64,000 nt of DNA from Spirochaetota bacterium. GTDB taxonomy: Bacteria > Spirochaetota > UBA4802 > UBA5550. The notes under the pieces are model-generated. The model was given only the letters and a program-made list of their open reading frames with translations. It made no database searches and was not told the origin of the DNA. Position numbers and translations under genes: made by a program. Where the stretch lies: positions 359,291 through 423,290 of the forward strand of contig JAXGNG010000002.1 of the NCBI GenBank assembly GCA_040768125.1, given 5' to 3'. Positions 1,601-57,211 of this stretch are shown in pieces; positions within the stretch are counted from its first letter, which is position 1; every line of letters starts with the position of its first letter.

Positions 1601-1839
1601 GCCCGCCGTCCAACCGTGTGGATGAAGGTAATGTACGCTACTCCATCCGTTTCTGCCCGTCAATAATTTTTGTCCCCGGCGCCAAATTACTTGACGTGGA
1701 AACTTTTCGTTCAACAATTGCATCAAAAAACGGGATGGGTGGGGGATTCGTGCGTTTCGGCGGCGCTGTTCCCACCGCCTGGTGTGCGGGTATGACGATC
1801 CCGCATCGAATGGGCCCCGTGGTGATGCGAGGTGCTCCT

Positions 1840-2604
1840 ATGATCGGCAAGAAGATACGCCTGCAGAGAATAATCAACAGAAACACGGGGAGGATGATCA
1901 TCGTCCCGATGGACCACGGTGTCACGGTGGGTCCCATTCCCGGTCTCATCGACATGGCCGATACCGTCAACAAGATCGCGAACGGAGGGGCGAACGCCAT
2001 CGTGATGCACAAGGGGATCGTGGAAACGGGACATCGGTCCAGCGGGAAGGACATAGGGCTCATCGTCCATCTTTCCGCGAGCACCTCCCTGGCTCCCGAC
2101 TCCAACGCGAAAACCCTCGTGTGCAGCGTTGACGAGGCGGTACGCCTCGGCGCCGACGCGGTGTCGATTCATGTTAACATCGGCGCGAACACCGAGGCGG
2201 AGATGCTCGGCATCATGGGCTACATTTCAAGAAGCTGCAGGGACTGGGGGATGCCTCTTCTCGCCATGATGTACACCAGGGGAGCTAAGATAAAAAACGA
2301 ATACGATGTGGCCGTGGTGAAGCACGCCGCCCGCGTGGGGGCGGAGCTGGGCGCCGATATCGTAAAGGTCAATTACACGGGATCGCCCGAGTCGTTCGAC
2401 GAGGTGGTGAGGGGGTGCCCCGTGCCGGTCGTGATAGCCGGCGGTGAGAAGATGGAAAGCGATGAGGAGATACTTGAAATGGTGAGGGGATCGGTCGAGG
2501 CCGGAGGCGCCGGGGTATCGATCGGCCGAAACGTGTTCCAGCACCCGAGCCCGGAGATAATATTGAAAAAAATCGCGGAGATCGTGCACGGCGGCGGTAA
2601 ATGA
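1840..2604 (+). CDS. 2-amino-3,7-dideoxy-D-threo-hept-6-ulosonate synthase (AroA', DhnA-type class I aldolase)
   Basis: Matches the archaeal ADH synthase along its length: [63 protein letters not shown], and the Schiff-base region [11 protein letters not shown]. The ORF's N-terminal extension from 1570 is rejected as promoter sequence. Confidence 0.8.
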
Positions 2605-3602
2605 AGGAAGTCTGGCTCCACCTGCCATCATGGAACAAGGGCCTCGTTACGGAGGCCCTCGAATCCGGGGTAAACGCGATCGTGACGACGGCCGACCTCG
2701 TGGAGCGGATTCGCGAACTTGGAAGGATCATGGTGATCGCCCCGGACGGCGGCGACCGCAACATTCCCGGCGACGTGGAGATCGTTGTCATAAAGGATAA
2801 AAAAGACGAGGAGAGGGCCGCGGCCTCCCTGGCCTCTCGCGCGGTGATTGTTCGCACCACGGACTGGGACATCATACCGATCGAGAATCTGATACCCCGG
2901 GGGGGCGAGCGGCTCTATACCTTCGTGAGGCATCTGGATGACGCGAGGCTCGCCGCCGCGATAATGGAGAAGGGCGTTGCGGGTGTCGTTATTGAAACCG
3001 GGGACCCCGCCGAGATAGGACGCGTGGCGTCCTACATCCGTGAGATGGACAGCGAGGCATGCGAAATGGCATCGTTCACGATCACGGGGATCAGGGGCAT
3101 CGGCATCGGCGACCGCGTATGCGTGGACACCTGCGGGAACCTCGGGCCCGGGGAAGGACTCATGGTGGGCAACAGCAACCGGGGGATGTTCCTCGTTCAT
3201 GCCGAGAATATTGAAAACCCCTACGTCGCTCCCCGTCCCTTCCGCATAAACGCCGGGGCGGTGCATTCCTACGTGAGGGTGCCCGGCGGCAGGACGGTGT
3301 ACCTCGGCGAGCTTCGCACGGGCGATCCCGTCCTCATCGTGGACAAGGACGGTAAAACCTACACGTCCTACGTGGGTCGATCGAAAATCGAAAAAAGGCC
3401 CATGCTCGTCGTGTACGCCACGGACGGCCAGCACGAGTACTCCACTGTCCTCCAGAACGCGGAAACCATTCGTCTTACCTCGCCTGACGGAAAGGCCCTG
3501 AGCGTCGCATCGCTCAGGGAGGGGGATGTCGTGCTTGGGTGCAGTGAATCCGGCGGGCGTCATTTCGGCATGGCCGTCGAGGAGACGATTACCGAGCAAT
3601 AA
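2601..3602 (+). CDS. 3-dehydroquinate synthase II (AroB', archaeal-type)
   Basis: Conserved blocks [46 protein letters not shown] and [12 protein letters not shown] 4-nt ATGA overlap with the upstream aroA' suggests translational coupling. Confidence 0.85.
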
Positions 3603-3635
3603 CCAACCTGCCTCCGACTTGCCAACGGCATCCCT

Positions 3636-3663
3636 ATCCCTGAAAACGGGATCCCATTTTTTC
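3636..3663 (+). terminator. Rho-independent terminator candidate after aroB'
   Basis: ATCCC–TGAAAAC–GGGAT hairpin followed by CCCATTTTTTC. Confidence 0.5.
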
Positions 3664-3839
3664 TATGCATTCCAAAAAAAAGGATTGAACCGAGGGGGAA
3701 GTTTCATTCCTATGGAACGGAGTCCGATGCTGTGGACTCGTAGTGCCGCCCTGGGGTTTCGTAACGTGCGGGTCAAGATGGCAGAGCGGCGACCATGGCA
3801 CCACTTTGAAGGCTCACGGGTGTATGGGGCCTGTCTGCA

Positions 3840-3886
3840 AGCCAGCATCGTTTCCTTCAGGGGATAACGGGTGTTGGCTTTTTTGT
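3840..3886 (+). terminator. hairpin plus U-tract (terminator or attenuator) 48 nt upstream of the gltA start codon
   Basis: An 8-bp stem (AGCCAGCA / TGTTGGCT, one G·U pair) around a 24-nt loop, followed by TTTTTTGT. It ends a ~270-nt noncoding interval. Confidence 0.4.
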
Positions 3887-3933
3887 AATGATGGATGCGG
3901 CATCAACAGGTTAACCGCAGCCGCGCCCCGGGC

Positions 3934-5253
3934 ATGTCGACATTACAGGAAGGGGTCTTGCCGTTGAGCGACGCAGTACTGCATTATAACGGGACCGACT
4001 ATCCCCTCGGCATCGTTGAAGGGACGGAGGGGGAGAAGGCGATCGATATCCGCAATCTCCACAGGGATACCGGGCTCATAACCCTTGATACCGGTTATCA
4101 GAACACAGGATCCTGCCTCTCGGCCATCACCTACGTCGACGGGGAAAAGGGAGTGCTCCGCTACCGCGGAATTCCGATCCAGGTGCTGGCGGAGAAGGCT
4201 TCCTTCACCGAGACGGCCTTTCTGCTCATCCACGGCCACCTGCCGTCGGAGGAGGAGCAGAAGCTCTTTTCGCGGCGCCTCACCGAGAATTCCATGATCC
4301 ACGAGAAGATGCTCCGTTTTTTCGACGGTTTCCCCGTAACGGCGCATCCCATGGCCATGTTGAGCACCATGGTCAATGCGCTCTCGGTGTACTATCCACT
4401 GTTCTTCACGGACAAATTCGAGAGCGACACCTTTGAATTGATGGCGGTCCGGCTTATCTCGAAGATACGCACTATCGCCGCCTATTCATACAAGCATTCA
4501 ATCGGCGAGCCCTTTATCTATCCGAGGGACGATCTGCGTTATTGCGCGAATTTCCTTTACATGATGTTTCACAGCCCCGCGAAACCGTACGATGTCGACC
4601 CCTTCATCCACCAGCTGCTGAACATACTGCTCATTCTCCACGCCGATCACGAGCAGAACTGCAGCACCTCCACGGTGAGGCTCGTGGGAAGCAGCATGGC
4701 AAACCTCTATTCATCGATATGCGCCGGAATCTGCGCCCTCTGGGGCCCGCTCCATGGAGGCGCCAACCAGAGCGTGATCGAAATGCTCGAGAGCATCCAG
4801 AAGGAAGGTCTCACGGTGCGGCAGTGCATTGAAAAAGCGAAGAGCAGGGATTCCAACTTCAGGCTTTTCGGTTTCGGCCACCGCATTTACAAGAGTTACG
4901 ACCCCCGGGCGACATTGTTGAAGGAAAAATGCTGGGAGATGATAAGAATGTTCAACATTCACGAGCCCCTTATCGACATCGCCATGGAGCTGGAGCAGGC
5001 GGCCCTCCAGGACGACTACTTCATCGAGCGCCGTCTCTACCCGAATGTTGATTTCTACAGCGGGCTTCTCTACCGGATGATGGGCATCCCCACGGAAATG
5101 TTCACGGTGATGTTCGCCATCGGTCGGCTTCCCGGATGGATCGCCCAGTGGAAGGAGATGCATGACGATACGCCCCTTAAAATCGGACGACCCCGTCAGG
5201 TTTATATCGGAACGCATCTCGCTGATTACGTGCCGGTGGAGAAGCGGGGGTAG
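3934..5253 (+). CDS. gltA: citrate synthase (type II)
   Basis: Citrate synthase signature region GFGHRIYKSYDPRA, catalytic His context HGGANQ, and full-length similarity. The 3895 start is trimmed to MSTLQEG. Confidence 0.9.
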   Translation: MSTLQEGVLPLSDAVLHYNGTDYPLGIVEGTEGEKAIDIRNLHRDTGLITLDTGYQNTGSCLSAITYVDGEKGVLRYRGIPIQVLAEKASFTETAFLLIHGHLPSEEEQKLFSRRLTENSMIHEKMLRFFDGFPVTAHPMAMLSTMVNALSVYYPLFFTDKFESDTFELMAVRLISKIRTIAAYSYKHSIGEPFIYPRDDLRYCANFLYMMFHSPAKPYDVDPFIHQLLNILLILHADHEQNCSTSTVRLVGSSMANLYSSICAGICALWGPLHGGANQSVIEMLESIQKEGLTVRQCIEKAKSRDSNFRLFGFGHRIYKSYDPRATLLKEKCWEMIRMFNIHEPLIDIAMELEQAALQDDYFIERRLYPNVDFYSGLLYRMMGIPTEMFTVMFAIGRLPGWIAQWKEMHDDTPLKIGRPRQVYIGTHLADYVPVEKRG

Positions 5254-5417
5254 CGGTGCCGCCGAAGCGGCGCGGGGTCCCCGGCCGCGGCAAGCAGCGG
5301 ATACAGTGTCTGACCCGTGTGCCGATTTTTACAGCATGCGCGTGCATGCGTCATTGGACCGGCGCGGGGCGAGAGCATGATATACCAGATGAACACCAGT
5401 CGAAAAGGAGCCGATTG

Positions 5418-8400
5418 ATGTCCAAAAAAAAGATGACCAAATCCATGGACGGCAACATGGCAGCCGCCCATGTCGCCTATGCCTTTACCGAGGTCGCGAC
5501 GATTTACCCGATAACCCCCTCGTCGCCGATGCCGGAATACGTCGACGAATGGGCCGCCCATGGGCTGAAGAACATATTCGGCGAAAAGGTCAGGCTCGCG
5601 GAGATGCAGTCCGAAGCGGGGGCCGCGGCGTCGATGCACGGCGCGCTCCAGGCGGGGGCGCTGGCCACGACCTTCACGGCATCCCAGGGGCTCCTTCTCA
5701 TGATCCCCAACATGTATAAAATGTCGGGCGAGCTGCTTCCCGGCGTCATGCACGTGACCGCCCGGTCAATTTCCGCGCACGCCCTGTCGATTTTTGGTGA
5801 CCAGGCCGATATCTACGCCGTTCGCCAGACCGGTTTCGCCATCCTCGCCAGCGGTGGCGTCCAGGAGGTGATGGACCTCGGGAGCGTGGCGCACCTTGCC
5901 GCTATCAAATCGCGGGTTCCCTTCCTTCATTTTTTTGACGGTTTCAGGACCTCGCATGAAATCCAGAAAATCGAGGTGCTGGAGTATAAGGACCTGAAAA
6001 AGCTCGCGGATTGGACTTCGATCGAGGAGTTCAGGAAGCGAGCCCTGAACCCGATGGATCCCGTTACCAGGGGTACGGCGCAGAACCCCGATATCTATTT
6101 CCAGCTTCGGGAGGCGGCGAATCCCTATTACGAGGCGGTCCCGGACATCGTTGAAGGATACCTCAGGGACATGAGCGCGCTTACCGGAAGGGAATACCAT
6201 CCCTTCGTGTACTACGGCGCTCCCGACGCGGAGCATATCATCGTAGCCATGGGTTCGGTGACGGAAACCATACGTGAGACGATCGACCACATGATGGAGA
6301 AGGGAGACAAGGTGGGCCTCATGACCGTCCACCTCTACAGGCCCTTCTCGGCGAAGCATTTTTTCAAGATGCTTCCGAAGAGCGTCAGGCGCATCGCCGT
6401 CCTGGACCGGACCAAGGAGCCAGGGGCAACCGGCGAACCGCTCTACCTGGACGTGAGGGACATCTTCTACGGCCGCGAGAACATGCCCCTTATCGTGGGT
6501 GGGCGGTACGGTCTCAGTTCCAAGGACACAACCCCGGGCCAGATTATCGCGGTATTCGACAACTTGAGACAGCCGGAGCCGAAAAACGGTTTCACCATAG
6601 GCATCACGGATGACGTCACCTTTACGTCGCTTTCGGTGAAGGAAAACTTCAGCACCGCGCCGAAAGGCACCTTTGCCGCAAAGTTCTTCGGCATCGGTTC
6701 CGATGGAACCGTGGGGGCGAACAAGAATTCCCTGAAGATAATCGGCGACCACACCGACATGTACGCCCAGGCCTATTTCGCCTATGACGCCAAGAAGTCG
6801 GGAGGGGTCACGGTGTCGCACCTCCGCTTCGGCAAAAAGCCGATACGTTCGACTTACCTTGTTATCCGTCCCGATTTCGTGGCGTGCCATGTCCCCTCTT
6901 ACCTGGAGCAATATGACATGCTCAAAGGCCTTAAGAAGGGCGGGACATTTCTGCTGAACAGCATCTGGGACGCCGAGGAGACAAAGCGGCGACTCCCGGA
7001 CCATATCAAAAAGTACCTGGCCGAGAACGACATCAGTTTCTATATCATCAACGCAACGGAAATCGCCGAGGAGATAGGCCTGGGCACCCGAACCAACAGT
7101 ATCATGCAGGCGGCCTTTTTCAAGCTGGCGGACGTCATCCCCTACGATGAGGCCACGGGATACATGAAGGAAGCCGTGGACGCCACGTACGGGAAAAAGG
7201 GCGACGATATCATCAGGATGAATTACGCCGCGATCGAGAAGGGTGCCGAGGGCCTGGTCAGGGTCGAGGTCCCGGCGGAGTGGAAGGACATCGTGACGGA
7301 TGCCGACGCCGCGCGCGGCGAGGTCCCGGAATTCGTGCGCGAAATCGCGGACCCCATGAACCGCCTGGATGGAGACAGCCTTCCCGTGAGCGCATTTTCG
7401 GACATGCCCGACGGCACTTTCCCGCCCGGTACCACGGCCTACGAAAAGCGGGGTATCGCGGTCCATGTGCCGGAATGGCAGCCCGATGAATGCATCCAGT
7501 GCAACCAGTGCTCCTATGTCTGCCCCCACGCCGTTATCCGGCCCTTCCTCCTTGACGACGCCGAGGCGGCCGCAGTCCCGGAGGGGACCCGGCTTGTCGA
7601 CGCCAAGGGGAAGGGACTCGAGGGCTACAAGTTCAGGATACAGATAAGCCCCCTGGACTGCACCGGCTGCGGCAATTGCGAACAGACCTGTCCCGCGAAA
7701 CCGAAGGCCCTGATCATGAAAAATCTTGATGACCAGATGGCGGAAAGTGCCCGGTGGGCCCATTTCAGCCGCACTGTCACGTACAAGGACACCCTGGTAG
7801 CGAAAAGCACCGTGAAGGGGAGCCAGTTCGCCCGGCCCCTCTTCGAGTATTCAGGCGCCTGCGCCGGATGCGGGGAGACCCCCTACATCAAGCTCATCAC
7901 GCAGCTCTACGGTGACCGCATGATGATCGCAAACGCGACGGGATGTTCATCGATCTACGGCGGTTCCGCGCCAGGCACCCCGTACTGCGTCAATTCTGAA
8001 GGGCACGGTCCATCATGGGCGAGTTCCCTATTCGAGGACAGCGCCGAATACGGTTTCGGCATGAAGATTGGCGTCGAGCAGCTCAGGGACCGGGTCGAGG
8101 AATGCGCGCGGGAACTCATCAGGGGCGGCGCGTCCCCGGCCCTGAAAGAGGCGCTCAGCGAATGGATCGAAGGCCGGGACGACGCGGAGAAATCAAAAAA
8201 AGCTTCGACGAAACTCGTGCCTCTTCTTGAGTCGGAAAAAGACGATAACGCCCGTGAAATCCTCCGCCTGAGGGACTATCTCCCCAGGCGCTCGATCTGG
8301 ATTATCGGAGGTGACGGGTGGGCCTACGATATCGGCTACGGTGGCGTCGACCATGTAATTGCGTCGGGCGCCGATGTCAATCTCCTGGTCCTGGATACCG

Positions 8401-10872: not shown

Positions 10873-11971
10873 AATTCAAGGATGAAGTGCAACATTAGGA
10901 ATCAGTAATAATAGTAGTCTCATGGGGGCTCTTCCCATAGGATTGAGTTTGACAGAACATAATCCGAGGAGGAACCACCCATGAGACTGTATTCACACAT
11001 AACGAAAGACGAGCGCCATGTCATCCAAAAAATGCTCTATTCTAGCGTATCAAAGATTGAATTGAGCAAATATCTGGGACGCGATCGATCTACCATTTAT
11101 CGAGAGCATACACGAAACAGGACAAAAGGCTATCATTATCAAGATGCACATGAACGTTATTGCGCCCGAAGGTATAGGCGTCGGAGAAAGCTCGATAGCA
11201 ATGGTGTGTTACGGCTTCTTGTATGCTCTTTGCTTATGGAGAGAAATTCCCCTGAAGTCACATCATATTATTTGAGGAGCCAGTTTCCCGGAGATCCTGA
11301 GATGCATATATCAACTGAAGCCATCTATCAATGGGTGTATGCGCAGCATGGGGAGTACCACAATATGTTATTGCTTAATTATCTGTTCACAAAGAGGAAT
11401 AAACGTCAGAAACGGTCCCTGATATATCAAAAAAGAGAACTTATTGCTGGGAAACGGAACATTTGTGAACGTCCGATAGAGGCTGATGAAAAGACTGTCG
11501 CCGGCCATTTGGAGGGTGATCTCATTACCAGTGCAGGGAATGATGCATATTTACTTACCCTGGTTGACCGCAAACTGGCGCATATCTGGGGTGTTCCAGT
11601 CCATTCCAAGGATGCGGAAATCGTATCCCGAGCTGTCGTGGAGGCACTGAACGATTTACCTGCCGGATTCGTTAAAACAATTACATTCGATAATGGTAGT
11701 GAATTCAGCTTATTTCAGAATATCGAAAAAGCATTGGAATGCAAGGTCTTCTTTGCCGATCCATATTGTTCATGGCAACGTGGGTTAAATGAGCATATCA
11801 ATGGACGCATCCGCCAGTATATCCCTAAGAAAAAAAGTTTTGCCCACTTGACCGATGATGATTTTGAGGATATCCTCTGTGCAATAAATTCGAGGCCCCG
11901 AAAATCCCGTGGGTGGCGTACCCCGAGATCGCTGTTGAATGAACTGATTTGTTGCACTTGAATGTTGAATT
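10873..11971 (+). mobile_element. IS30-family insertion sequence (~1.1 kb)
   Basis: Imperfect terminal inverted repeats, AATTCAA-N5-AAGTGCAACA at 10873–10894 and the reverse complement at 11950–11971. Single IS30 transposase ORF. Local GC falls to ~40% against ~60% in the flanks. Confidence 0.7.
10981..11961 (+). CDS. IS30-family DDE transposase
   Basis: IS30 hallmarks: HLEGDLI, TFDNGSEF and ADPYCSWQRGLNEHINGRIRQYIPKK. Confidence 0.9.
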   Translation: MRLYSHITKDERHVIQKMLYSSVSKIELSKYLGRDRSTIYREHTRNRTKGYHYQDAHERYCARRYRRRRKLDSNGVLRLLVCSLLMERNSPEVTSYYLRSQFPGDPEMHISTEAIYQWVYAQHGEYHNMLLLNYLFTKRNKRQKRSLIYQKRELIAGKRNICERPIEADEKTVAGHLEGDLITSAGNDAYLLTLVDRKLAHIWGVPVHSKDAEIVSRAVVEALNDLPAGFVKTITFDNGSEFSLFQNIEKALECKVFFADPYCSWQRGLNEHINGRIRQYIPKKKSFAHLTDDDFEDILCAINSRPRKSRGWRTPRSLLNELICCT

Positions 11972-24466: not shown

Positions 24467-25453
24467 TTAATGGATTTCCGGTCCGTCGGCGTTTCCCCTG
24501 TCGCTTCCCGTTACTTTTCTGTTGTCAATCAACACTTCGAGCTCTTTGCCGCTGAACCGGTACCGCTGCGCGCAAAAGGCGCAGGTGACCTCCGCCCCGT
24601 TGTCGCGTTCCCGCATCTCTTTCAGTTCGTCCATGCTGACGTGGGCCAGGATGTCGAGTATCAGCCTCCTGCTGCAGCGGCATGCGGACTTCAGGGGTTG
24701 GGACCCAAGGATGGTCAGGGGTTCGCCGCCGAAAAGGGCCGCGAGGAACGCTTCCATGGGTTCGCCGTCTTTCAGTTTTTCGCCAAGGGAACGTTCCATC
24801 GTGGTGATGGCATTCTCCACCCGTGCCACCGACGTTTCAGGCGTATCCGGGAGGGTCTGGATGAGGACGCCCCCGGAGGAAGTGATGCCGCCGTCGTTCC
24901 CCAGGGTGAGGCCGATGATGAGGGCCGAGGGGACCTGCTCGGATATCGTCAGGTACCGTGCGACATCCGCGGCAACGTCGCCCGCCTCGAGGTGGATGAC
25001 GCCGGAGTAGGGCTCTCCATGGCCTGTTTCCCTTCGTACCGTAAGGAGGCCAGCGCCGATGCTTTTAGAAAAGCTGATGGTGTCCAGTTCACCGGTTTCA
25101 TCGGGACGGGGATTTCCGGCATAGGCCCGGATGTTCCCTCGGGCATCGGCCTGGGCATGCAGCTCCCTGATGGGACCGCTTCCCTCTATCCGGAGGACCA
25201 GGCTCTGGTCCGAAAGAGGTTTCAGGGTGGCGCTCAGAAGGGCCGTAGCGGTGATCGTCCTTCCCATCGCGACCGTTGCGTTTGGCGTGGTGCCGTGAAG
25301 GGAGGTGATTATCCGCACGGTTTCGAGCGTGGTGGCGGTGTAGGCCCTCAGGCCCAGGCCCTCGCAGAGGTAGCGCGTCAGGGTGTCGGTCCCTCTCAGG
25401 TCGTTACCCGGGGCAGAAGTCGCGGCATGGGAATGGCCGGTTGACATGGTCAT
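24467..25453 (-). CDS. hslO: redox-regulated chaperone Hsp33
   Basis: C-terminal zinc centre C-x-C ... C-x-x-C (CRCSRR...CAFCAQRY) and an Hsp33 N-domain. The start overlaps the upstream gene's stop by 4 nt. Confidence 0.85.
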   Translation of the reverse strand: MTMSTGHSHAATSAPGNDLRGTDTLTRYLCEGLGLRAYTATTLETVRIITSLHGTTPNATVAMGRTITATALLSATLKPLSDQSLVLRIEGSGPIRELHAQADARGNIRAYAGNPRPDETGELDTISFSKSIGAGLLTVRRETGHGEPYSGVIHLEAGDVAADVARYLTISEQVPSALIIGLTLGNDGGITSSGGVLIQTLPDTPETSVARVENAITTMERSLGEKLKDGEPMEAFLAALFGGEPLTILGSQPLKSACRCSRRLILDILAHVSMDELKEMRERDNGAEVTCAFCAQRYRFSGKELEVLIDNRKVTGSDRGNADGPEIH

Positions 25454-26613
25454 TTTTCACCGATCCTGATACAACCCTTGCCAGGCTGGGAGCAGGAGTA
25501 TCCGCAATTGATATTTTCATCGGAGCAGCAAGAATCGAGGAAGATATCCCATCGTGCGCGCTCCCTTGAATACAAGAGAAAGGCCCGGACAACGCATTCA
25601 TAGACGACACGACGTGTCACGAGCCCGGGTTTTCCATCCTTAACGGATTCCCCGGGTTCATCTATTGAGAAAAGGACCCGCCCCGTCAGGGGTATCTTCG
25701 TGCGGTATGCCTCTGGCTCTCCCCTGGAGATGATCTCCAGCTTCTCGATGTCGACGTTCCCCTTCTTGAGTCCGTATTCCTCCGCCAGGGATTTCTTCAG
25801 CAGTTGAAGGGCTTCCTCGTCATTGACTTCCGGCAAGGAGCCGTCGGTTGAGAGGTTCCTGCACATCGTCGGGATAAAGCACTCAACCCGGTCCTTTCCC
25901 CTGAAGACGCAGGCATCGCCCGCGTAGCGCCATTCCCCGCCCGAATTCTCAAGGGTAGAGCGCATGAGGCATTCATAGGTGGAAAGGGTATTGGTGAGAT
26001 CGTCATTACGGGAAATGACGGCCCGCGAGGTCACCAGGGTGCGGGCCGTACATCGTTCCCTGGACGCTGTTTTTTTCAACACCACGACCTCCTTCACTAC
26101 CCACCCTGGGCGGCGTTCAACGAGGCCCTGGCGGACCAGGGAGAGAGCCGTTTTGTCGTCAAGGGCGGGTAGTTTCTTTTTCGGCGCCCCGACTTCCTTC
26201 GATACCGTTTTTTCAATGCGATCGAAGATCCATTCTGTTTCAAGGCGGTAATAATGGGCATCCCATATGTCACGAAGGGGAAGACCGCATTCGTTGATGA
26301 TGATATCGACCGTTACGCGATGGACCTGCGAGGGGACCGCTATTCCGCCCTTCATTACGCTGCCGTTGCGCACACCACCGGCGTACGTGACTCTGCGTTC
26401 CGTCGTCCCATCGGGCTGTTGATAGACTGTGCGGAAATCGGCGAGAACCCGCTTTCCGGTCACGGCGCCAATCTTGCCGGGAGGGGGCGAGGGCCCGACA
26501 CCAGCGGCGGGCGGCGCGGCGGTGATCATGCCTCCGCCGGTGATGAAAGCGGAGAGGAGGACGGTAATCCAGATGAGGGCTCGTGACGTGTGATGTCCCA
26601 TTGCTTTCTCCAT
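25450..26613 (-). CDS. hypothetical membrane-anchored or secreted protein with a Cys-rich C-terminal tail
   Basis: N-terminal hydrophobic segment ALIWITVLLSAFITGGG and 13+ Cys, including the C-terminal SCCSDENINCGYSCSQPGKGC. No known domain recognised. Confidence 0.5.
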   Translation of the reverse strand: MEKAMGHHTSRALIWITVLLSAFITGGGMITAAPPAAGVGPSPPPGKIGAVTGKRVLADFRTVYQQPDGTTERRVTYAGGVRNGSVMKGGIAVPSQVHRVTVDIIINECGLPLRDIWDAHYYRLETEWIFDRIEKTVSKEVGAPKKKLPALDDKTALSLVRQGLVERRPGWVVKEVVVLKKTASRERCTARTLVTSRAVISRNDDLTNTLSTYECLMRSTLENSGGEWRYAGDACVFRGKDRVECFIPTMCRNLSTDGSLPEVNDEEALQLLKKSLAEEYGLKKGNVDIEKLEIISRGEPEAYRTKIPLTGRVLFSIDEPGESVKDGKPGLVTRRVVYECVVRAFLLYSRERARWDIFLDSCCSDENINCGYSCSQPGKGCIRIGEK

Positions 26614-28212: not shown

Positions 28213-30078
28213 TTACTTTCTCGATTTAACTTTTTTCATCATCTGGGATTTTTTCTGGGTATACAGGGACATCAGGTATTTTTCAATGTTGAGCAGCGCC
28301 TGCGGGGTCATTTTTTCATCCTTTATCTTTTCACCCGCAAGGGAATCGATGAATTCGCGGATGAGCTCCGGGGACTGGACCAGATCAGTATCGACCATAA
28401 GGTATTCGATGTCCGGGATCAGGTAAAGCTGGCTCCGGTTTGGGTAGAGCACTTTCCGCGCATTGTAAATCGGGATCACGATTTTCAGGTTGAGCTTCCT
28501 GACATCCTGGATTATCGTTTCTATCCGGTCCTCGTTGGCGGGAAGGAGGTCAATGTGGTTCGAAAGGGGGATTATTTTCTGGCCGCTGTTTCTGATTTTA
28601 TTGAGTATGTTTTTTGCCTCTCCGGTCGCCATGGGACGATAGGCCTCATGGTCATGGCCCTGCTGCCGGGTGGTTCCCGCGTGTGAATCTTCCTTCCTCG
28701 ACGAGAAAATAGACCTGAAGAAATCGGTAATCGATTCAAATATCGATTTGTTTTTTTTCACCTCGCGCTCATCGCGCTCCACCGCCGCCCCGAGGGCAAG
28801 GCTGTTCTGGTAATTGTCGTACTCATCGATCATGCGTCGCATTCGGTTGATCGACTCAACGTTGCCGATGAAGGCCTTCGCCCGCTCCTCGGAGCCCATG
28901 AGATTCCTTCCCGCGTTGAAGAGTATGCCGGTCTCGTCCAGGATCCTTTCCTTTTCCGTTTGGGTCGCGCCGGCGAGGGCGTCCGGACCCGAAACGACAA
29001 GGGCGTGGAGTTCCTCCATGCGCGAAAGAAGCCGGTCGCCGTCGATGAGGTAATGCACCCCGTCTTCATCCCTGAAGAGGGCGATCCTGTGCTGGGGTCC
29101 CTGCGCGCCGGCCCATTCGATGACGGACTGCTCGGTGAGCCCGTTGAAAAGCGATGTGATCGCCGAGACGGAACAGAACCGGCTTTCCCTCACGTGCGCG
29201 GCGATATCGGCGCCTGCGGTGACGATTGGATCGATCAGGGTTTCCACCTTGAGAAGGCAGGAGCGCAGGGAGTTGAAATTCTTGACCTCGGTCTGCTCCG
29301 CGTTGGAAAGAGAGGGGAATATATCCTGCAGAAGAACACTCAGTATGTAGTCCAGTTTCGTATCGCGGTAGTCGCTGAATTCGGCATTGAGAATCCCGAA
29401 ATTTTTCAGGCGCCGGAGGACGGGGGCGGTGTGGTGCGCGATCACCTTGTTGAGGCGCTCCATGGTGAGGGCGTCCTTGACCGACTCGTAGTTGTCCCTG
29501 TGGAAGCAGAAATCCTCGGCAGTTTCAACGCCCTGACGGTCGATTGAATAATGCTTGTAGGTGAACACTCCGGTATTGAGCTCGCCCTTGATGGCCTGCG
29601 TGAGGAGGGCGCGTTCACCGGTTTTTCTCAAAAGCTTGGTGAGATTGAAAAGCCTGAACTGGGATATGAGCTCGAGAAAATTACGGGCCGATACGCGGTT
29701 GCGCTCGTTCTGTATCCGGTTGAATTCATCGTGGCTAAGCAGTATCGAGAATTCCCTGTTTTCCGCTATCGAAAGCTTTTTGGATTCCGGTTCGACGGCA
29801 AACGAGAACGAGACAATGCTTTTAACCTCGCCGGGATAGGTTTTCGTGAGAATTGTCATGTGATTGACGATCATCTTGTTGCGGGCGATGGTGAAGGGAA
29901 TCTTTATGTTTCGCGACGTCTTCAGATCCTCCATCGTCGCGAGGCGTCCCAGACCCGTTGTGAGATAATTGGTCTGGAATGCCATGATCTCGTTGAGGAC
30001 CTCAAAGATATGCGGCTCGCGCGCGATGTGCGAGTGAAGGAAGGGGAATCTTTTGTCCTGTACGTTTTCTTTCGGCAT
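28213..30078 (-). CDS. large (621 aa) hypothetical cytoplasmic protein with no recognisable domain
   Basis: Long ORF with coding-like composition but visibly lower GC than its neighbours. Start set at MPKENVQ (30078). Confidence 0.55.
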   Translation of the reverse strand: MPKENVQDKRFPFLHSHIAREPHIFEVLNEIMAFQTNYLTTGLGRLATMEDLKTSRNIKIPFTIARNKMIVNHMTILTKTYPGEVKSIVSFSFAVEPESKKLSIAENREFSILLSHDEFNRIQNERNRVSARNFLELISQFRLFNLTKLLRKTGERALLTQAIKGELNTGVFTYKHYSIDRQGVETAEDFCFHRDNYESVKDALTMERLNKVIAHHTAPVLRRLKNFGILNAEFSDYRDTKLDYILSVLLQDIFPSLSNAEQTEVKNFNSLRSCLLKVETLIDPIVTAGADIAAHVRESRFCSVSAITSLFNGLTEQSVIEWAGAQGPQHRIALFRDEDGVHYLIDGDRLLSRMEELHALVVSGPDALAGATQTEKERILDETGILFNAGRNLMGSEERAKAFIGNVESINRMRRMIDEYDNYQNSLALGAAVERDEREVKKNKSIFESITDFFRSIFSSRKEDSHAGTTRQQGHDHEAYRPMATGEAKNILNKIRNSGQKIIPLSNHIDLLPANEDRIETIIQDVRKLNLKIVIPIYNARKVLYPNRSQLYLIPDIEYLMVDTDLVQSPELIREFIDSLAGEKIKDEKMTPQALLNIEKYLMSLYTQKKSQMMKKVKSRK

Positions 30079-30230
30079 GATCGTTTGACATGAAAGAGGC
30101 CGTTTCACGGCCATTTTTTCGGCGCGCGACGACGCGGTGCCGATTCGCCCACAAGGATGAAATCCCCGCAGGGAGCCCTTGTCGCGACGGTATCAATGAT
30201 TGGAAATCAAAGGGGCTTTTGTCAATACTT

Positions 30231-40148: not shown

Positions 40149-41015
40149 ATGAAAAAAATCGATCTTCACACCCATACCACGGCCTCGGACGGCATATACT
40201 CCCCCCGGGCGCTGATCGACCTCGCAAGGAGCAACGGCCTTGTCGCCATGGCCATAACCGACCATGATACGGTTGACGGCCTCGGCGAGGCCATGGAATA
40301 CGCAGCTTCGGTGGGGTTCAGGCTGTACCCGGGGATCGAGTTCAGCATAGATTACGATGAAGGATCGTTCCATCTCCTCGGCCTCAATCTTGACCATGGC
40401 GACGCCGCCCTGAGAAGCAAACTCCGCTTTCTTACGGGGGAGCGGGAGAAGCGGGCGTATCGCATAATCGATGACCTGCAGCGCCACGGAATCGAGATCC
40501 CGATCGAAGAGGTGCTCGCCGAGTCAGGCGGCGGCTCGATCGGACGTCCTCATGTGGCACGTGTCATGGTGAACAGGGGATACGCCGCGACGATAAAGGA
40601 TCTTTTCCGGGGCTACCTTGTAAAGGGGAAGCCCGGATTCGTTAAAAAGACGCGCATCGCCTTCAAAGATGCGGTTGACCTCATCCATGCCTGCGGGGGG
40701 ATTCCGGTTGTCGCGCACCCGGTATCACTGGAATGCCGCGACATGGACCATTTCGAGACGCTTCTCAGGGGGTTCGTCAATGTGGGAGTTGAAGGTATCG
40801 AGGCCTACGCGGCGATGCACACGCCGGACATGGCTGAAGCCTACCGCGCCCTGGGGGAGCGGTACGGACTCCTGATTACCGGCGGAAGCGATTTCCATGG
40901 AGATAAGGACGAGGTCATCGGGTATTACCGAAAGGGCGAACTGATACCACCGGGCATTCTCGAACGTCTCGAGGAGCGTATCACGGCGGGGCCCGGAAAT
41001 CGACGACGGGACTAG
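40149..41015 (+). CDS. PHP-domain phosphoesterase
   Basis: MKKIDLHTHTTASDG...AITDHDTVDG PHP histidine motifs. Confidence 0.8.
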   Translation: MKKIDLHTHTTASDGIYSPRALIDLARSNGLVAMAITDHDTVDGLGEAMEYAASVGFRLYPGIEFSIDYDEGSFHLLGLNLDHGDAALRSKLRFLTGEREKRAYRIIDDLQRHGIEIPIEEVLAESGGGSIGRPHVARVMVNRGYAATIKDLFRGYLVKGKPGFVKKTRIAFKDAVDLIHACGGIPVVAHPVSLECRDMDHFETLLRGFVNVGVEGIEAYAAMHTPDMAEAYRALGERYGLLITGGSDFHGDKDEVIGYYRKGELIPPGILERLEERITAGPGNRRRD

Positions 41016-41830
41016 AGGACGATCAGGAACCTGCCACAGTGGGTGCAGAGTGATATTCCCTCCCGGTTTTTCGTCTGTTCGACGTAAAACGGGGGAATCT
41101 CCATGTGGCATCCGGAACAGCTGTTTTTCTCGACGATGGAGAAGGGGTTCTCCTTTTTTTTTCTCATGCGCTCGTAGTAGGTGAGGGAACGGTTGTCTAT
41201 CAGCTTTTTCAGGGTGTCGATTTTCTTCTGGAGCGCGGGGTTTCGGTCCCCCTCGTCGTAGAGTTTGTAGAGGCTGTCAAGCCGGATCAACAGGTCCAGG
41301 TCGGAGGAGGGGACACCTGAAAGGTTCTCCGGGGTGCCGGCCTTCGGGGAGACCTTCTCGGACAGGGAATCAAAATACGCCTTTGACTCTTTTTTTAACA
41401 GCGCGTATATCTTTGAAGGGGCGGTTTCGCTCTCGATTGCTTTTCTTTTCGATTTGTTCGAGAAGATCCTGGCCATCATCCCGATAAGATACAGGTACCT
41501 GGTGCTCAGCTCAGTGGGGAAGATGCTGAGAAGCACGTACTTGACGGGCCTGTCATCAATGGACTGGTAATCGATCGGGCTTTCAAGGATGCCGAAGATG
41601 GCGATGAGATCGGATACCGATTCTGTGCGGGCGTGGGGTATTGCGAGGCCGCCCCCTATACCGGTGTTTTCAAGGGATTCGCGGTGGATAATCTGGGCGT
41701 AGTAGCGTTCCTTGTTGTTTATGTAACCCAGTTCCTGGAGTTTGTCGACGAGTTCCTTTATTACCAGCTGTTTTTCCGTGGATTTTATCTTGATAACCTG
41801 TTTGCGGTCGAAAAATCCTTCAAGATCCAT
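41012..41830 (-). CDS. PTS EIIA(Ntr)-like domain fused to a coiled-coil / C4 zinc-ribbon C-terminus
   Basis: EIIA type-2 His region NTGIGGGLAIPHART, then a coiled-coil-like segment and CSGCHMEIPP...CTHCGRF. The start is set downstream of tRNA-Pro; the ORF's 5' extension overlaps the tRNA and is rejected. Confidence 0.6.
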   Translation of the reverse strand: MDLEGFFDRKQVIKIKSTEKQLVIKELVDKLQELGYINNKERYYAQIIHRESLENTGIGGGLAIPHARTESVSDLIAIFGILESPIDYQSIDDRPVKYVLLSIFPTELSTRYLYLIGMMARIFSNKSKRKAIESETAPSKIYALLKKESKAYFDSLSEKVSPKAGTPENLSGVPSSDLDLLIRLDSLYKLYDEGDRNPALQKKIDTLKKLIDNRSLTYYERMRKKKENPFSIVEKNSCSGCHMEIPPFYVEQTKNREGISLCTHCGRFLIVL

Positions 41831-41871
41831 AGATGCCCGCCGGTAAAAATGGAATAGAAAAAAGCAGCTAT

Positions 41872-41945
41872 TCGGGGCGAGAGGATTTGAACCTCCGACC
41901 CCTTGACCCCCAGTCAAGTGCGCTAACCGGACTGCGCCACGCCCC
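41872..41945 (-). tRNA. tRNA-Pro (anticodon GGG)
   Basis: Cloverleaf read by eye: 7-bp acceptor stem GGGGCGT/CGCCCCG, anticodon stem CTTGA/TCAAG with loop CTGGGGG (U33, GGG at 34–36, G37), T-arm GGAGG-TTCAAAT-CCTCT, discriminator A. Confidence 0.85.
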
Positions 41946-42125
41946 GAATCTGATGTCGCCGGAATCGCATCCAACCCGATGATCAACCCGCGAGAGGACG
42001 ATGGATTGTGGGCCGGAGATGAGCCGTGACAACGACGGTGGCCATAATCAGTCATAACCCCCTGCCCGTCAAGCTTTATTGTGACACCCGCGGCGAATGT
42101 CGCGGAAGATCGGGTGACGGGAGTA

Positions 42126-54828: not shown

Positions 54829-55563
54829 ATGCAGAAGATCAGACACGTCTATCGGAGGCTTCTCCGTTTCCATGGGCCGCAGGGATGGTGGCCCATCCTC
54901 GATCCGGAACGTGGATCAGGCACCTATCATCTGAACGCCCCGCGGAACGGATCTGAGGTGTTCGAGATATGCGCCGGGGCCATTCTTACCCAGAATGTAG
55001 CGTGGAAAAACGCCGAGAAGGCCCTGTGCAATCTCAAGCGGGCGGGAATGCTCGGTCCGGAAGAGATTGAAGGTGCGAAGCTTCAGGACCTTGGCGCGAT
55101 GATCCGCTCAGCAGGATATTACAATCAGAAAGCGAAAAAGCTGAAGCACTTCACCGCCTGGTACCGGCGCTTCGGCTATAACGCATCGGCCCTTGCCGCC
55201 CTGAACCGGGACCTCCTCAGGAGCGAACTGCTCGCCGTATCGGGCATCGGCCCTGAGACCGCGGATTCGATTCTCCTCTACGCCCTCGGCATGACAACAT
55301 TCGTTGTAGACGCATACACGAAGAGGATATTCACCCGCATCGGAATGGTTCGCCGGGGTGAGGGCTACGAGGGGATCCGCACCATGGTGCATCGCCTCTT
55401 CCCGTCCCCGGCGTCAGTATATAACGAATTTCACGCCCTCATCGTCGCCCACGGGAAGGATTACTGCACCAAACGTCCCTCCTGCGCCGACTGCTGCCTC
55501 GAGCCGCTCTGTGCGAAAATCCTTGACGATGCCGCGCCCGCGGGTATACTGCCTCAATCCTGA
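54829..55563 (+). CDS. HhH-GPD base-excision glycosylase (endonuclease III-like, with Fe-S Cys loop)
   Basis: HhH-GPD region [35 protein letters not shown] and C-terminal Cys cluster [16 protein letters not shown]. Confidence 0.75.
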
Positions 55564-55585
55564 ACCATCAGCGGAGTTACCGGGC

Positions 55586-57211
55586 ATGACAACACGCGAC
55601 TCTACCGCCACGAAGGAATGGCAGGCCCTCCGGGTCCACCATGACGAGGTGAAGGGAATGACCCTGGGCGAGCTCTTTGCATCAGATCCCGCCAGGGCGG
55701 GGGCCTTTACGGTCAGTGAGTGCGGCCTTCTGATGGACTATTCAAAAAACCGGGTCACCGCCAGGACAATGGCGCTCCTGAACGATCTTGCCATGTCGCG
55801 CGGCCTTGAAAAGGAAATCGCCCGGATGTTCGGCGGCGAAAAGATAAACGCCACCGAGGGGAGGGCGGTCCTCCATGTCGCCCTGAGGAACCTCGGCGGG
55901 GACCCGATTATCCTTGACGGAATTGACGTGATGCCCGGTGTGCGCGCCGTCCTGGAGAGGATGAGGGAATTCTCCGACGAAATCCGGGACGGGAACTGGA
56001 AGGGTCATACGGGCCGTCCCGTGAGGAATATCGTTAATATCGGCATCGGGGGCTCGGACCTGGGGCCTTCGATGGCAACGGAGGCCCTGGCCTTCTATTC
56101 GCGGCGGGAGCTGCGCTCCTTTTTCGTCTCGAACGTCGACGGAAGCCATATCATGGAGACCCTGCGGGGACTCGATCCCGAGGAGACGCTCTTTATCGTC
56201 GCATCGAAGACCTTCACCACCCAGGAAACCATGGCCAATGCCGCCACGGCGCGGCGATGGGTAGTCGATTCCCTCGGAAGCGATGCCGCCGTCCGCCGGC
56301 ATTTCGTTGCCGTGTCCACCAATTCTTCGGCGGTGGCCGCCTTCGGAATAGACCGCGAGCGAATGTTCGAGTTCTGGGACTGGGTGGGGGGGAGGTACTC
56401 CCTCGCTTCGGCAATAGGCCTTTCGCTGATGATCTCGATAGGTCCGGAGCGTTTCTTCGAAATGCTCGAGGGCATGCATGAGATGGACATGCATTTTCTC
56501 CGGACGCCCTTCACGCGCAACATGCCGGTCATACTCGCCCTTATCGGGATATGGCACGTGAACTTTTTCGGAGCGGAATCCTGCGCGGTACTTCCCTACG
56601 ACCAGTACCTTCGGCGATTCCCCGCCTACCTGCAGCAGGCGGACATGGAATCGAACGGCAAGGGCACCGATCGAGACGGGAACAGGGTCAACTACGCGAC
56701 GGGGCCCGTTGTCTGGGGCGAGCCCGGTACCAACGGGCAACACGCGTTTTACCAGCTCCTTCACCAGGGAACAAGGCTGGTCCCGGTTGATTTCATCGGC
56801 TTCGCGAGCCCCCTCTGGGAGGCGGGGAACCACCACCGGCTTCTTGTGGCGCATATGATCGCCCAGGCCGAGGCACTTGCCTTCGGAAAAAGCGCCGATC
56901 AGCTTCGCGCGGAACACATACCCGAAAGGCTGATCCCCTTCAGGACATTCGAGGGGAACAGGCCCTCCACGGTCATCCTCGCCGATCGACTCGACCCGCG
57001 TACCCTGGGCAAGCTCATCGCGCTTTACGAGCACAAGATATTCGTCCAGGGGATCATCTGGAACATATATTCATTCGACCAGTGGGGAGTGGAACTGGGC
57101 AAGGCCCTGGCGAACAGGATAATTGGTGAATTCGAGCAGGGGCGCTGGCATGACGGGGGCCACGATTCCTCCACGAGCGCCCTGATGCGTTACTGCCTGG
57201 AACGCGGGTAA
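55586..57211 (+). CDS. pgi: glucose-6-phosphate isomerase
   Basis: 541 aa with PGI signature regions ([23 protein letters not shown], catalytic Glu/His/Lys context). The ORF's 5' extension from 55358 is rejected. Confidence 0.9.

Follow-up and report, generated by a model that had tools for sequence, protein, structure and literature searches.

Which process does a protein serve that joins an EIIA(Ntr)-like PTS domain to the C-terminal part of a FlgZ/CdsZ protein? In many bacteria the gene for EIIA(Ntr) lies beside rpoN, yet the targets known so far are scattered and, for the most part, not connected with sigma-54. FlgZ/CdsZ (COG1579) proteins are widely distributed and bind sigma-54/RNA polymerase as well as secretion components, without an agreed mechanism. 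A gene for such a fusion is located in the 64,000 nucleotide stretch of DNA from a Spirochaetota bacterium that was analysed here (the window). A conserved natural fusion ranks among the better indications that EIIA(Ntr) and FlgZ/CdsZ are functionally linked, and we offer the hypothesis that the PTS phosphorylation state might act where the zinc-ribbon module docks.

The fusion gene and its genomic context

The mechanical open reading frame (41012-42055, minus strand) encodes 347 amino acids. Since all homologues are about 272 amino acids long and begin at an internal methionine (MDLEGFF...), the real coding sequence is 41012..41830 on the minus strand (272 amino acids plus stop), in agreement with the Pfam matches and the AF2 model. 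The remaining 75 codons (41831..42055, minus strand) are a spurious 5´ extension, carried by none of the homologues in the alignment, and run through a tRNA-Pro with anticodon GGG (41871..41947, minus strand), which was found by both ARAGORN and Rfam (RF00005, 63.5 bits). The preliminary description had already regarded these codons as unreal and had named the tRNA, and both points hold. It had let the gene end at 41945, which includes non-coding tRNA sequence, and it had reversed the order of the two genes: the fusion gene lies directly downstream of the tRNA, on the same strand and separated from it by 40 nucleotides. An exact look-up of the protein sequence from the window gave no record.

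The tRNA-Pro is the sole recurrent neighbour of the fusion gene. In 33 of the 76 eligible related loci, the most divergent ones included, it precedes the gene on the same strand by not more than 500 nucleotides, and in many related loci the distance is 28-54 nucleotides. No terminator-like site was found between tRNA-Pro and fusion gene on the minus strand. Upstream of the tRNA, a consensus scan revealed two sigma-70-like matches (TTGACG-17-GATTAT and TTGTCA-16-CACAAT; 42005..42072, minus strand), a candidate promoter of the tRNA-mRNA unit, and related loci contain a conserved TTTACA-~17-TAAAAT element at the equivalent position. Because of the short distance, the conserved promoter in front of the tRNA and the absence of a terminator in between, the fusion gene and tRNA-Pro(GGG) are probably transcribed together from the tRNA promoter. 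A sigma-54 promoter upstream of the tRNA was also considered and was rejected, as inspection by eye gave no GG-N10-GC match.

In the window the fusion gene is accompanied by uvrC, the tRNA-Pro and a PHP-domain gene. Pfam scans of 40 window ORFs revealed no PTS genes, ptsP/npr included, besides the fusion itself and no RpoN or RNA polymerase genes, and motif scans of the window for the RpoN box, the EI active site, the HprK P-loop, the HPr histidine and GAFTGA were negative, as was a tblastn search of the window for HPr with E. coli and B. subtilis queries. Across approximately 90 related loci none of the genes rpoN, ptsI, ptsH and hprK is consistently found near the fusion gene; motif scans of 82 related loci yielded only a spurious GAFTGA match and an EI fragment 10 kb from a paralogue in one locus (L076), which is too short to be used as a query. 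Synteny with the window (uvrC, PHP, M32, ROK, pheST) is mainly confined to the closest clade (at least 76% identity), with PHP, ROK and pheST fragments of it in a few loci at 64-70% identity. De novo clustering of neighbours gave housekeeping genes in sub-clades only, among them an Ogg-type glycosylase (confirmed by Pfam) and, judged by eye from the sequence, ClpC/McsA/McsB-like, cardiolipin-synthase-like and NfeD/SPFH-like genes. Distant family members are found in unrelated, metabolic contexts. The neighbourhoods vary and do not hint at a function. In the window a FapA gene is found at a distance of 10 kb from the fusion gene, and in one related locus (L001) a CheY-like/CheX/GGDEF cluster is located divergently to it.

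In the window no NIF3 (DUF34), rpoD-dnaG or RNase H gene adjoins the fusion gene, and such genes are also absent from the annotated recurrent neighbour clusters of about 80 spirochaete loci. In two loci (L041 and L038) a canonical cluster of NIF3, a CT398-like gene (PF24481 plus PF02591) and RNase H is present 5 kb from the fusion gene, and the canonical paralogue of L041 matches PF24481 at 1.8e-10. Since some genomes also keep this canonical cluster, the fusion is an extra paralogue.

Two conserved modules and their distribution

The N-terminal module is the EIIA(Ntr)-like domain with the GIGGGLAIPH motif that had been recognised in the preliminary description. PTS_EIIA_2 (PF00359) matches residues 12-147 (41390..41797, minus strand) over 137 of the 144 profile positions, with an E-value of 7.2e-30 and 104.3 bits (cutoff 27); the Pfam matches of both domains of the protein are far beyond chance. 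The motif spans residues 57-66, and in the alignment to 1a6j His66 (codon 41633..41635; GTG on the plus strand, CAC on the minus strand) coincides with the active-site histidine of the E. coli PtsN motif GIGNGIAIPH, making it the predicted phospho-acceptor. H66 and the cysteines C238, C241, C262 and C265 never vary among 37 close homologues or in a set of 24 sequences that includes distant members, and in 113 sequences down to about 23% identity they are invariant together with R50, E51, P65 and D92. The phospho-acceptor histidine and the zinc ligands are both invariant across very deep divergence, and the two weak points foreseen in the preliminary description, lack of a phosphorylatable histidine on alignment and cysteine pairs not conserved in homologues, do not apply. 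The domain stays below the NCBIfam cutoffs for PtsN equivalogs (TIGR01419, 68.2 bits with a cutoff of 138.7; NF008145, 50 bits with a cutoff of 221) and is thus not a bona fide PtsN orthologue. Structure comparison identified PtsN as its nearest fold, and two close EIIA relatives (P0127 and P0138) are fused to Na+/H+ exchangers.

A flexible linker of about 15 residues (~158-175; 41306..41359, minus strand), variable in length and sequence in the alignments and with pLDDT values below 50 at residues 159-167 (better model) or 158-175 (first model), leads to the C-terminal module. This module begins with three helices (176-192, 198-210 and 213-225; 41156..41305, minus strand), identified by the profile comparison with the PDB and the AF2 secondary structure, whose homologues in HP0958/CT398 are the descending and connecting helices. 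The three helices bear the motifs LL.RL and Y-x-R-[ML], and L181 and L184 are nearly invariant in the 24- and 113-sequence alignments. The module ends with a C4 zinc ribbon (Zn_ribbon_9, PF02591; residues 237-269, 41024..41122, minus strand; E-value 1e-7, 32.3 bits with a cutoff of 29.1), composed of CSGC (238-241) and CTHC (262-265) with 20 residues in between, a spacing that agrees with the CxxC-x18-26-CxxC pattern of the COG1579/DUF164 family. The COG1579-like ribbon proposed earlier is therefore present. The proposal of generic Lys/Glu-rich helices with a ribbon of nucleic-acid-binding type has to be replaced: over about 100 residues the module is homologous to HP0958 (FlgZ) and CT398 (CdsZ), in both cases to the C-terminal half, with profile matches to HP0958 residues 121-234 (E-value 1e-14), CT398 residues 113-234 (3.4e-14) and MSMEG_4306 (1.9e-6) and structural matches to 3na7 and 4ilo. 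The coiled-coil hairpin of these proteins (CT398_CC, PF24481) gave no Pfam match in the fusion protein at E-values up to 1, and its place is occupied by the EIIA domain; the score for the CdsZ equivalog NF047363 is 31.6 bits with a cutoff of 275. Within the spirochaete clade the C-terminal module is conserved as strongly as the EIIA domain, and the basic/aromatic hallmark residues YYERMRKK and GRFL are retained. The fusion offers a minimal FlgZ/CdsZ module without the hairpin, usable for mapping zinc-ribbon binding.

The single-chain AF2 model used here was based on the 113-sequence alignment (mean pLDDT 87.8) and superseded a first run with a shallow 37-sequence alignment, in which the C-terminal module came out poorly, with pLDDT values of 36-49. 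With a pTM of 0.58 and a disordered linker, the model does not show a fixed inter-domain contact.

The fusion had been called unusual, which is correct in comparison with characterised proteins, but it is not a one-off. Uncultured Spirochaetota/Leptospirales have hundreds of proteins with the EIIA-zinc-ribbon architecture, the count for the spirochaete clade exceeding 250, and other uncultured lineages, one of them named Candidatus Lindowbacteria, have it at 24-32% identity. Carriers include the chromosomes OW818666.1 and OY760686.1 and the MAG contigs CAVSZF010000002.1 and CAZKPR010000097.1. It was found in at least 21 further clusters at 50% identity and in more than 120 further clusters at 90% identity. 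A literature search revealed no paper describing an EIIA-Zn_ribbon_9/DUF164 fusion. From identity and architecture, the gene almost certainly belongs to a family of regulators with two modules that is conserved and had escaped description. Members are annotated as "PTS sugar transporter subunit IIA"; in uncultured Spirochaetota and other candidate lineages this label is carried by hundreds of proteins that most probably have no part in sugar transport.

Possible partners and mechanism

The partners on record for FlgZ/CdsZ proteins are sigma-54/RNA polymerase and FliH/CdsL, and for one member flaA mRNA (PMC5947703, PMC3372290). The zinc-ribbon cysteines of HP0958 are required for RpoN accumulation (PMC3372290). 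CT398 binds RpoN through its N-terminal coiled coil, assembles with RpoN and core RNA polymerase into a single complex and also binds FliH/CdsL, according to the account of Barta 2015 given in PMC5947703. AF3 models in a preprint place the zinc ribbon of the family on the beta' shelf/jaw of RNA polymerase and the tip of the coiled coil at the core-binding domain of sigma-54 (bioRxiv 10.64898/2026.07.15.738315). On the PTS side, ptsN is classically found in a cluster with rpoN, and in Leptospira interrogans a regulatory EI is present and PTS transporters are lacking (PMC2405797).

Taken from these homologues, our preferred reading is that a PTS phospho-acceptor is tethered to RNA polymerase/sigma-54 by the FlgZ/CdsZ module, which as a whole we consider possible, with a likelihood somewhat short of even. 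A regulatory, transporter-less PTS (EI to HPr/NPr) would phosphorylate His66 according to the carbon/nitrogen (PEP) status; the zinc-ribbon/helix module would dock on the partner of the family, most likely RNA polymerase (beta' region) and/or the sigma-54 holoenzyme, and sigma-factor use or the stability of the holoenzyme would be modulated according to whether the tethered EIIA is phosphorylated. Both the docking target, which is drawn from distant homologues (~22% identity), and the regulatory logic are tentative. Against this mechanism, the coiled coil that contacts RpoN in CT398 is exactly the part missing in the fusion, the beta' anchoring of the ribbon rests on AF3 predictions from a preprint, and rpoN, ptsI, ptsH and hprK are absent from the window and not consistently close to the gene in the related loci. 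The uninformative neighbourhoods and the EIIA score below the PtsN cutoff also speak against it. It is rather unlikely that the family constitutes a novel kind of signal receiver resident on RNA polymerase, with the ribbon on the beta' shelf/jaw and the EIIA domain at the position where the coiled coil usually reaches the sigma-binding region. If this were so, the PEP/carbon-nitrogen state would be delivered by phosphorylation directly to the transcription machinery, and this "Rosetta-stone" fusion would provide a physical basis for the long-noted, unexplained ptsN-rpoN linkage. The fusion architecture suggests that nutrient status might be wired directly to the transcription machinery.

Other readings have to be weighed against this tether. 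A misjoining of two adjacent genes or a chance ORF has practically no probability: the mechanical ORF did indeed reach too far in the 5´ direction, through the tRNA, but a single ORF of 270-290 amino acids recurs in hundreds of independent assemblies (NCBI, JGI, ENA, Logan) with invariant catalytic residues and zinc ligands, which refutes an artefact. An RNA-binding, post-transcriptional regulator, in which the ribbon would bind mRNAs or other RNAs and EIIA phosphorylation would switch the binding, is unlikely. HP0958's zinc-ribbon domain reportedly binds the flaA transcript (Douillard 2008 and Pereira 2011, as cited in PMC5947703), the Borrelia homologue BB0713 was picked as a candidate RNA-binding protein by gradient profiling (bioRxiv 10.1101/2025.09.19.677338), the fusion keeps the basic and aromatic hallmark residues, and FlgZ/CdsZ-family genes often adjoin genes for RNAs (tRNA-Met and RNase P RNA, PMC3372290; tRNA-Pro here). 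However, RNA binding is on record for one family member only, Rfam reports the tRNA alone and no conserved RNA element near the gene, and the tRNA adjacency is more simply due to shared transcription. The phosphorylation-controlled DNA/RNA-binding regulator of the preliminary description, which the RNA-binding reading narrows to RNA, therefore remains one reading among several, as the recorded partners of the family include sigma-54/RNA polymerase, FliH/CdsL and flaA mRNA, but it is not the best supported one.

It might also be that the protein is an ordinary PtsN-like EIIA that acts through its EIIA surface alone, for instance on K+/Na+ transporters or kinases, with a tail serving oligomerisation, stability or localisation. 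The structural proximity to PtsN, the close EIIA relatives fused to Na+/H+ exchangers, which fit the ion-homeostasis roles of PtsN, and the missing fixed inter-domain contact would agree with this, but we regard it as quite improbable: the FlgZ/CdsZ hallmark residues and the four cysteines are kept over a very large divergence, which argues for a specific conserved partner and not for a passive tail, and within the spirochaete clade the tail is conserved to the same extent as the EIIA domain. Very unlikely is a link to flagellar export, in which the C-terminal module would bind FliH and couple the PTS nutrient status to periplasmic flagellum assembly or motility. HP0958 and CT398 both bind FliH, which regulates the flagellar export ATPase, spirochaetes are flagellated, and the FapA gene and the CheY-like/CheX/GGDEF cluster mentioned above would fit; however, the fusion lacks the coiled-coil hairpin, which takes part in FliH binding, the approximately 90 loci show no consistent linkage to flagellar genes, and the distant members reside in unrelated metabolic contexts.

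Comparison with known systems

PtsN is typically a stand-alone protein of about 150-160 amino acids encoded in an rpoN-hpf-ptsN cluster. The fusion shares with PtsN (E. coli 1A6J; Burkholderia 3URR/4GQX; Neisseria 2A0J) the G-I-G-x-G-x-A-I-P-H motif with the invariant histidine and the R-E pair in front of it. The fusion would likewise be expected to be a terminal phospho-acceptor of a transporter-less regulatory PTS. The identity to PtsN is only 20-23%, and the E. coli T-H-L-H is R-Y-L-Y in the fusion family, and the close clade has Y112, L113 and Y114 without exception. Unlike stand-alone PtsN, the fusion has a C-terminal extension of about 115 residues, and unlike ptsN its gene is located outside any rpoN cluster in the window.

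With FlgZ (HP0958, 3NA7), CdsZ (CT398, 4ILO) and MSMEG_4306 (5Y05) of the COG1579/DUF164 family the fusion has in common the CxxC-x20-CxxC ribbon, the Y-x-R-[ILM] helix in front of it and the terminal G-R-[FIY]-L; as in every COG1579/DUF164 member, the ribbon is located at the extreme C-terminus (PMC3372290). In contrast to CT398, no coiled-coil hairpin PF24481, which bears the RpoN contact there, was detected, and in contrast to COG1579/DUF164 genes the NIF3, rpoD-dnaG or RNase H neighbourhood is lacking. Only one DUF164 protein per bacterium has been reported (PMC3372290), whereas the fusion coexists with a canonical COG1579 member in at least two genomes. Pereira et al. found only three Pfam DUF164 proteins that deviate from the plain layout of coiled coil and zinc ribbon, and the only one of them that they describe is WS2117 of Wolinella succinogenes, a NIF3-DUF164 fusion in which the zinc-ribbon module is C-terminal as well (PMC3372290). 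The partner in WS2117 is NIF3, the usual operon neighbour; here it is a PTS domain.

PRD regulators of the MtlR/LicR type bind DNA, contain HTH and PRD domains and carry C-terminal EIIA(Mtl/Fru)-like domains. They resemble the fusion in placing a phospho-regulated module of the EIIA_2 type inside a transcription regulator, and differ from it in their HTH and PRD domains, which Pfam did not detect in the fusion.

Position of the gene and its genomic surroundings

The mechanical ORF for the fusion protein (41012-42055, minus strand, 347 aa in the ORF list) encloses in its first 75 codons a tRNA-Pro with the anticodon GGG at 41871-41947 (minus strand). ARAGORN, which reports it as the single tRNA of the whole window, and Rfam (RF00005, 63.5 bits) agree on this tRNA. 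Since the homologues are all about 272 aa long and start at an internal Met (MDLEGFF...), the true coding sequence is 41012-41830 (minus strand), and the 5´ extension is spurious, as the preliminary description had argued. That description had also placed the gene upstream of the tRNA; as transcribed, the tRNA comes first, 40 nt upstream of the gene. The fusion itself was confirmed, and its coordinates and orientation had to be corrected. A PHP-domain gene (40149-41015, plus strand) is convergent with the fusion gene, and the two genes overlap by 4 nt at their stop codons (41012-41015), which leaves no intergenic room for terminators.

The tRNA-Pro(GGG) is the single recurrent neighbour of the fusion gene in the spirochaete clade. 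It is located on the same strand and at most 500 nt upstream in 33 of the 76 eligible loci; counted over the whole upstream flank, which extends to at most 10 kb, it is found in 43. The adjacency persists in the most divergent spirochaete members (about 50% identity), with gaps of 28-41 nt there and of 28-54 nt in many spirochaete loci; distant family members were found to be without such an upstream tRNA. Many loci have a conserved sigma-70-like promoter (TTTACA-~17-TAAAAT) ahead of the tRNA, and the consensus scan of the window revealed a candidate (TTGACG-17-GATTAT) at 42072-42044 (minus strand). No terminator-like site was found between tRNA and coding sequence on the minus strand of the window. 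Judged from sequence, the simplest reading is that tRNA-Pro(GGG) and the fusion mRNA are probably co-transcribed; the tRNA aside, the gene mostly appears to be monocistronic.

According to Pfam scans of 40 ORFs, the window is ordinary chromosomal housekeeping DNA. Genes near the fusion are pheST, a ROK kinase, an M32 carboxypeptidase, the PHP-domain protein, tRNA-Pro, uvrC, a HAMP/TPR protein, MarR and AOR; farther away are, among others, citrate synthase, PFOR, the Hsp33 chaperone, FapA and PGI. These scans and a further one detected no PTS, rpoN or RNA polymerase genes in the window. Synteny is largely confined to the closest clade; a few loci at 64-70% identity keep fragments of it, and the neighbours elsewhere are different. 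A gene for an 8-oxoguanine DNA glycosylase of the Ogg type (PF22175) lies close to the fusion at 23 spirochaete loci, and at 21 of these it is located upstream on the same strand (L021-L082, about 0.2-4 kb). In the window and its close relatives uvrC occupies this position, so that a DNA-repair gene precedes the tRNA either way. The window also contains an HhH-GPD gene (54829-55563, plus strand), 13 kb from the fusion gene and overlapped by about 200 nt by the mechanical ORF for PGI (55358-57211, plus strand, GTG start at 55358); since the Pfam match of PGI begins at residue 127, translation probably starts farther downstream. The only obvious mobile element of the window is an IS30-like transposase/integrase (HTH_38 + rve; 10981-11961, plus strand) adjoining pentapeptide-repeat genes. 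Two long ORFs, 28213-30114 (633 aa) and 25450-26613 (387 aa), both on the minus strand, remained without a Pfam match at E<=1e-5.

Two modules in one protein

The protein consists of two modules joined by a flexible linker, with an intact phospho-acceptor site and an intact Zn(Cys)4 site. Pfam assigns PTS_EIIA_2 to residues 12-147 (E 7.2e-30) and Zn_ribbon_9 to residues 237-269 (E 1e-7), both above the gathering score. In NCBIfam the N-terminal domain is intermediate between fructose-type EIIA and Ntr-type EIIA and scores under the curated cutoffs of both models. Among PDB sequences it matches PtsN (1a6j, 8e-12; 3urr, 4gqx, 2a0j), and in structural comparison 1a6j and 4gqx score 20.7 (1.8-1.9 Å over 146-149 residues). 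The best EIIA matches also include two proteins of 860-900 aa (P0127, P0138) in which a Na+/H+ exchanger membrane domain is combined with two tandem EIIA domains; such proteins are a further, little described way in which uncultured bacteria use EIIA(Ntr)-like domains.

The C-terminal half had been described as a generic charged helix with a zinc ribbon. The ribbon stands and keeps the FlgZ/CdsZ hallmark residues, but the half exceeds this description, because it matches HP0958 (FlgZ), CT398 (CdsZ) and MSMEG_4306 by profile and structure. Residues 167-269 match the PDB sequences of CT398 (4.6e-7) and HP0958 (1.2e-3). A profile of the last 123 residues of 25 diverse family members matches HP0958 (E 1e-14, its residues 121-234), CT398 (E 3.4e-14, residues 113-234) and MSMEG_4306 (E 1.9e-6). 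The structural matches are HP0958 (3na7; 14.3, 1.9 Å, 100 residues), CT398 (4ilo; 10.4, 2.3 Å, 100) and MSMEG_4306 (5y06; 7.2, 3.3 Å, 101). This part of the protein is therefore the C-terminal half of the FlgZ/CdsZ fold (COG1579/DUF164), with its descending helix, its connecting helix and the zinc ribbon. Pfam detected no PF24481 coiled-coil hairpin in the fusion protein; the EIIA domain takes the position of this hairpin.

Extent of the family and its paralogues

More than 250 proteins match the fusion at E<=1e-3; the best 120 of them are all about 272 aa long, nearly all with both Pfam domains. Their sources are MAGs of uncultured Spirochaetota/Leptospirales (NCBI, JGI, ENA, Logan), and 80 fusion loci lie in species-representative genomes; the protein of an 'uncultured Leptospirales bacterium' (L011) is 97% identical to that of the window. 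When 1.8 billion cluster representatives were searched exhaustively with HMMER, at least 21 additional 50%-identity clusters emerged (266-296 aa, full-length alignment, 24-32% identity), and both Pfam domains were present in all five scanned members of distant clusters. A profile of distant members revealed over 120 additional 90%-identity clusters; Candidatus Lindowbacteria is the sole informative organism name in this set.

In the alignment of 37 close homologues, invariant positions include H49, R50, E51, H66 and the four Cys. With distant members (24 sequences) these are R50, E51, A63, P65, H66, D92, L184, C238, C241, C262 and C265, and in the widest set (113 sequences) K20, R50, E51, G59, P65, H66, D92, L101 and the four Cys. 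The phospho-acceptor His and the Cys pairs, on which the preliminary description had staked its reading, are thus both retained throughout. This conservation indicates that the fusion is real and old and that selection acts on both functional signatures. The recurrence in hundreds of assemblies refutes an artefact, the probability of which is negligible.

A second ORF matching the C-terminal profile (E 1e-14 to 1e-15) is present in Spirochaetia bacterium UBA2205 (L041) and in L038 (4102-4839). In L041 it encodes 236 aa with CT398_CC and Zn_ribbon_9 in a canonical NIF3 (DUF34) - CdsZ-like - RNase H - RecJ cluster (1108-5606, minus strand; Pfam and profile), located 5 kb upstream of the fusion. 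Both genomes thus have two Zn_ribbon_9 proteins, the fusion being an additional paralogue beside the canonical family member. Two fusion paralogues, about 50% identical to each other, are found in MIBJ01 (L012/L073), CAWHAA01 (L005/L074) and JBGSUQ01 (L013/L087); the second copy in L087 lacks an upstream tRNA and is preceded by the gene for a GH94-type glycan phosphorylase of 2887 aa.

Possible function and relation to known systems

EIIA(Ntr) accepts the phosphate at the end of the regulatory PTS, and its gene classically accompanies rpoN; Leptospira interrogans is reported to have a regulatory EI and to lack PTS transporters (PMC2405797). HP0958 shields RpoN from turnover, for which the zinc-ribbon Cys are needed (PMC3372290). 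CT398 assembles together with RpoN and the RNA polymerase core into one complex (Barta 2015, quoted in PMC5947703), and an AF3 preprint of 2026 predicts the zinc ribbon of the family on the beta' shelf/jaw of the polymerase and the coiled coil across it, the tip extending to the sigma-binding region or to the core-binding domain of sigma-54 (10.64898/2026.07.15.738315). We tentatively favour a mechanism in which HPr/NPr of a transporter-less PTS would phosphorylate His66, the C-terminal module would dock on the family-typical partner, taken as the RNAP/sigma-54 holoenzyme, and the EIIA domain, in place of the hairpin, would act there in a phosphorylation-dependent manner. However, the mapped RpoN contact of CT398 is its N-terminal coiled coil (Barta 2015, quoted in PMC5947703), the part absent from the fusion, the beta' anchoring of the ribbon is a prediction, and genomic linkage to rpoN or PTS genes is absent.

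The preliminary description proposed a phosphorylation-controlled DNA/RNA-binding regulator, which is only partly supported. HP0958 also binds flaA mRNA (PMC5947703), and we regard an RNA-binding switch as rather unlikely compared with docking on RNAP/sigma-54. That the protein is PtsN-like with a passive tail is unlikely; the PtsN fold is clear, and the tail retains its zinc site. HP0958 binds FliH as well (PMC5947703), and CT398 contacts FliH/CdsL with both domains (Barta 2015, quoted in PMC5947703), one of them missing here; a link to flagellar export is less likely still. The docking mechanism is a proposal drawn from distant homologues, and the fusion is a clean, deeply conserved hint tying the regulatory PTS to the FlgZ/CdsZ/RNAP-sigma-54 axis that makes this link directly testable.

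The databases label the fusion proteins only as 'PTS sugar transporter subunit IIA', and we found no mention of an EIIA fusion of the FlgZ/CdsZ module in the literature searched. By fold, profile and His the protein belongs to the PF00359 EIIA superfamily. It is no PtsN equivalog, since it scores under the cutoff, carries an extra module instead of standing alone and lacks an rpoN cluster. It shares with COG1579 a genuine zinc ribbon (PF02591) and the helices next to it, but not the defining coiled-coil hairpin, the CdsZ equivalog score or the usual neighbourhood. It is best filed as a new domain architecture uniting two known modules. Pereira et al. stated in 2011 that a second DUF164 protein is hardly ever present in a bacterium and that only three of these proteins depart from the plain layout of coiled coil and zinc ribbon (PMC3372290); the genomes described above, with a fusion beside a canonical member or with two fusions, are exceptions on both counts.
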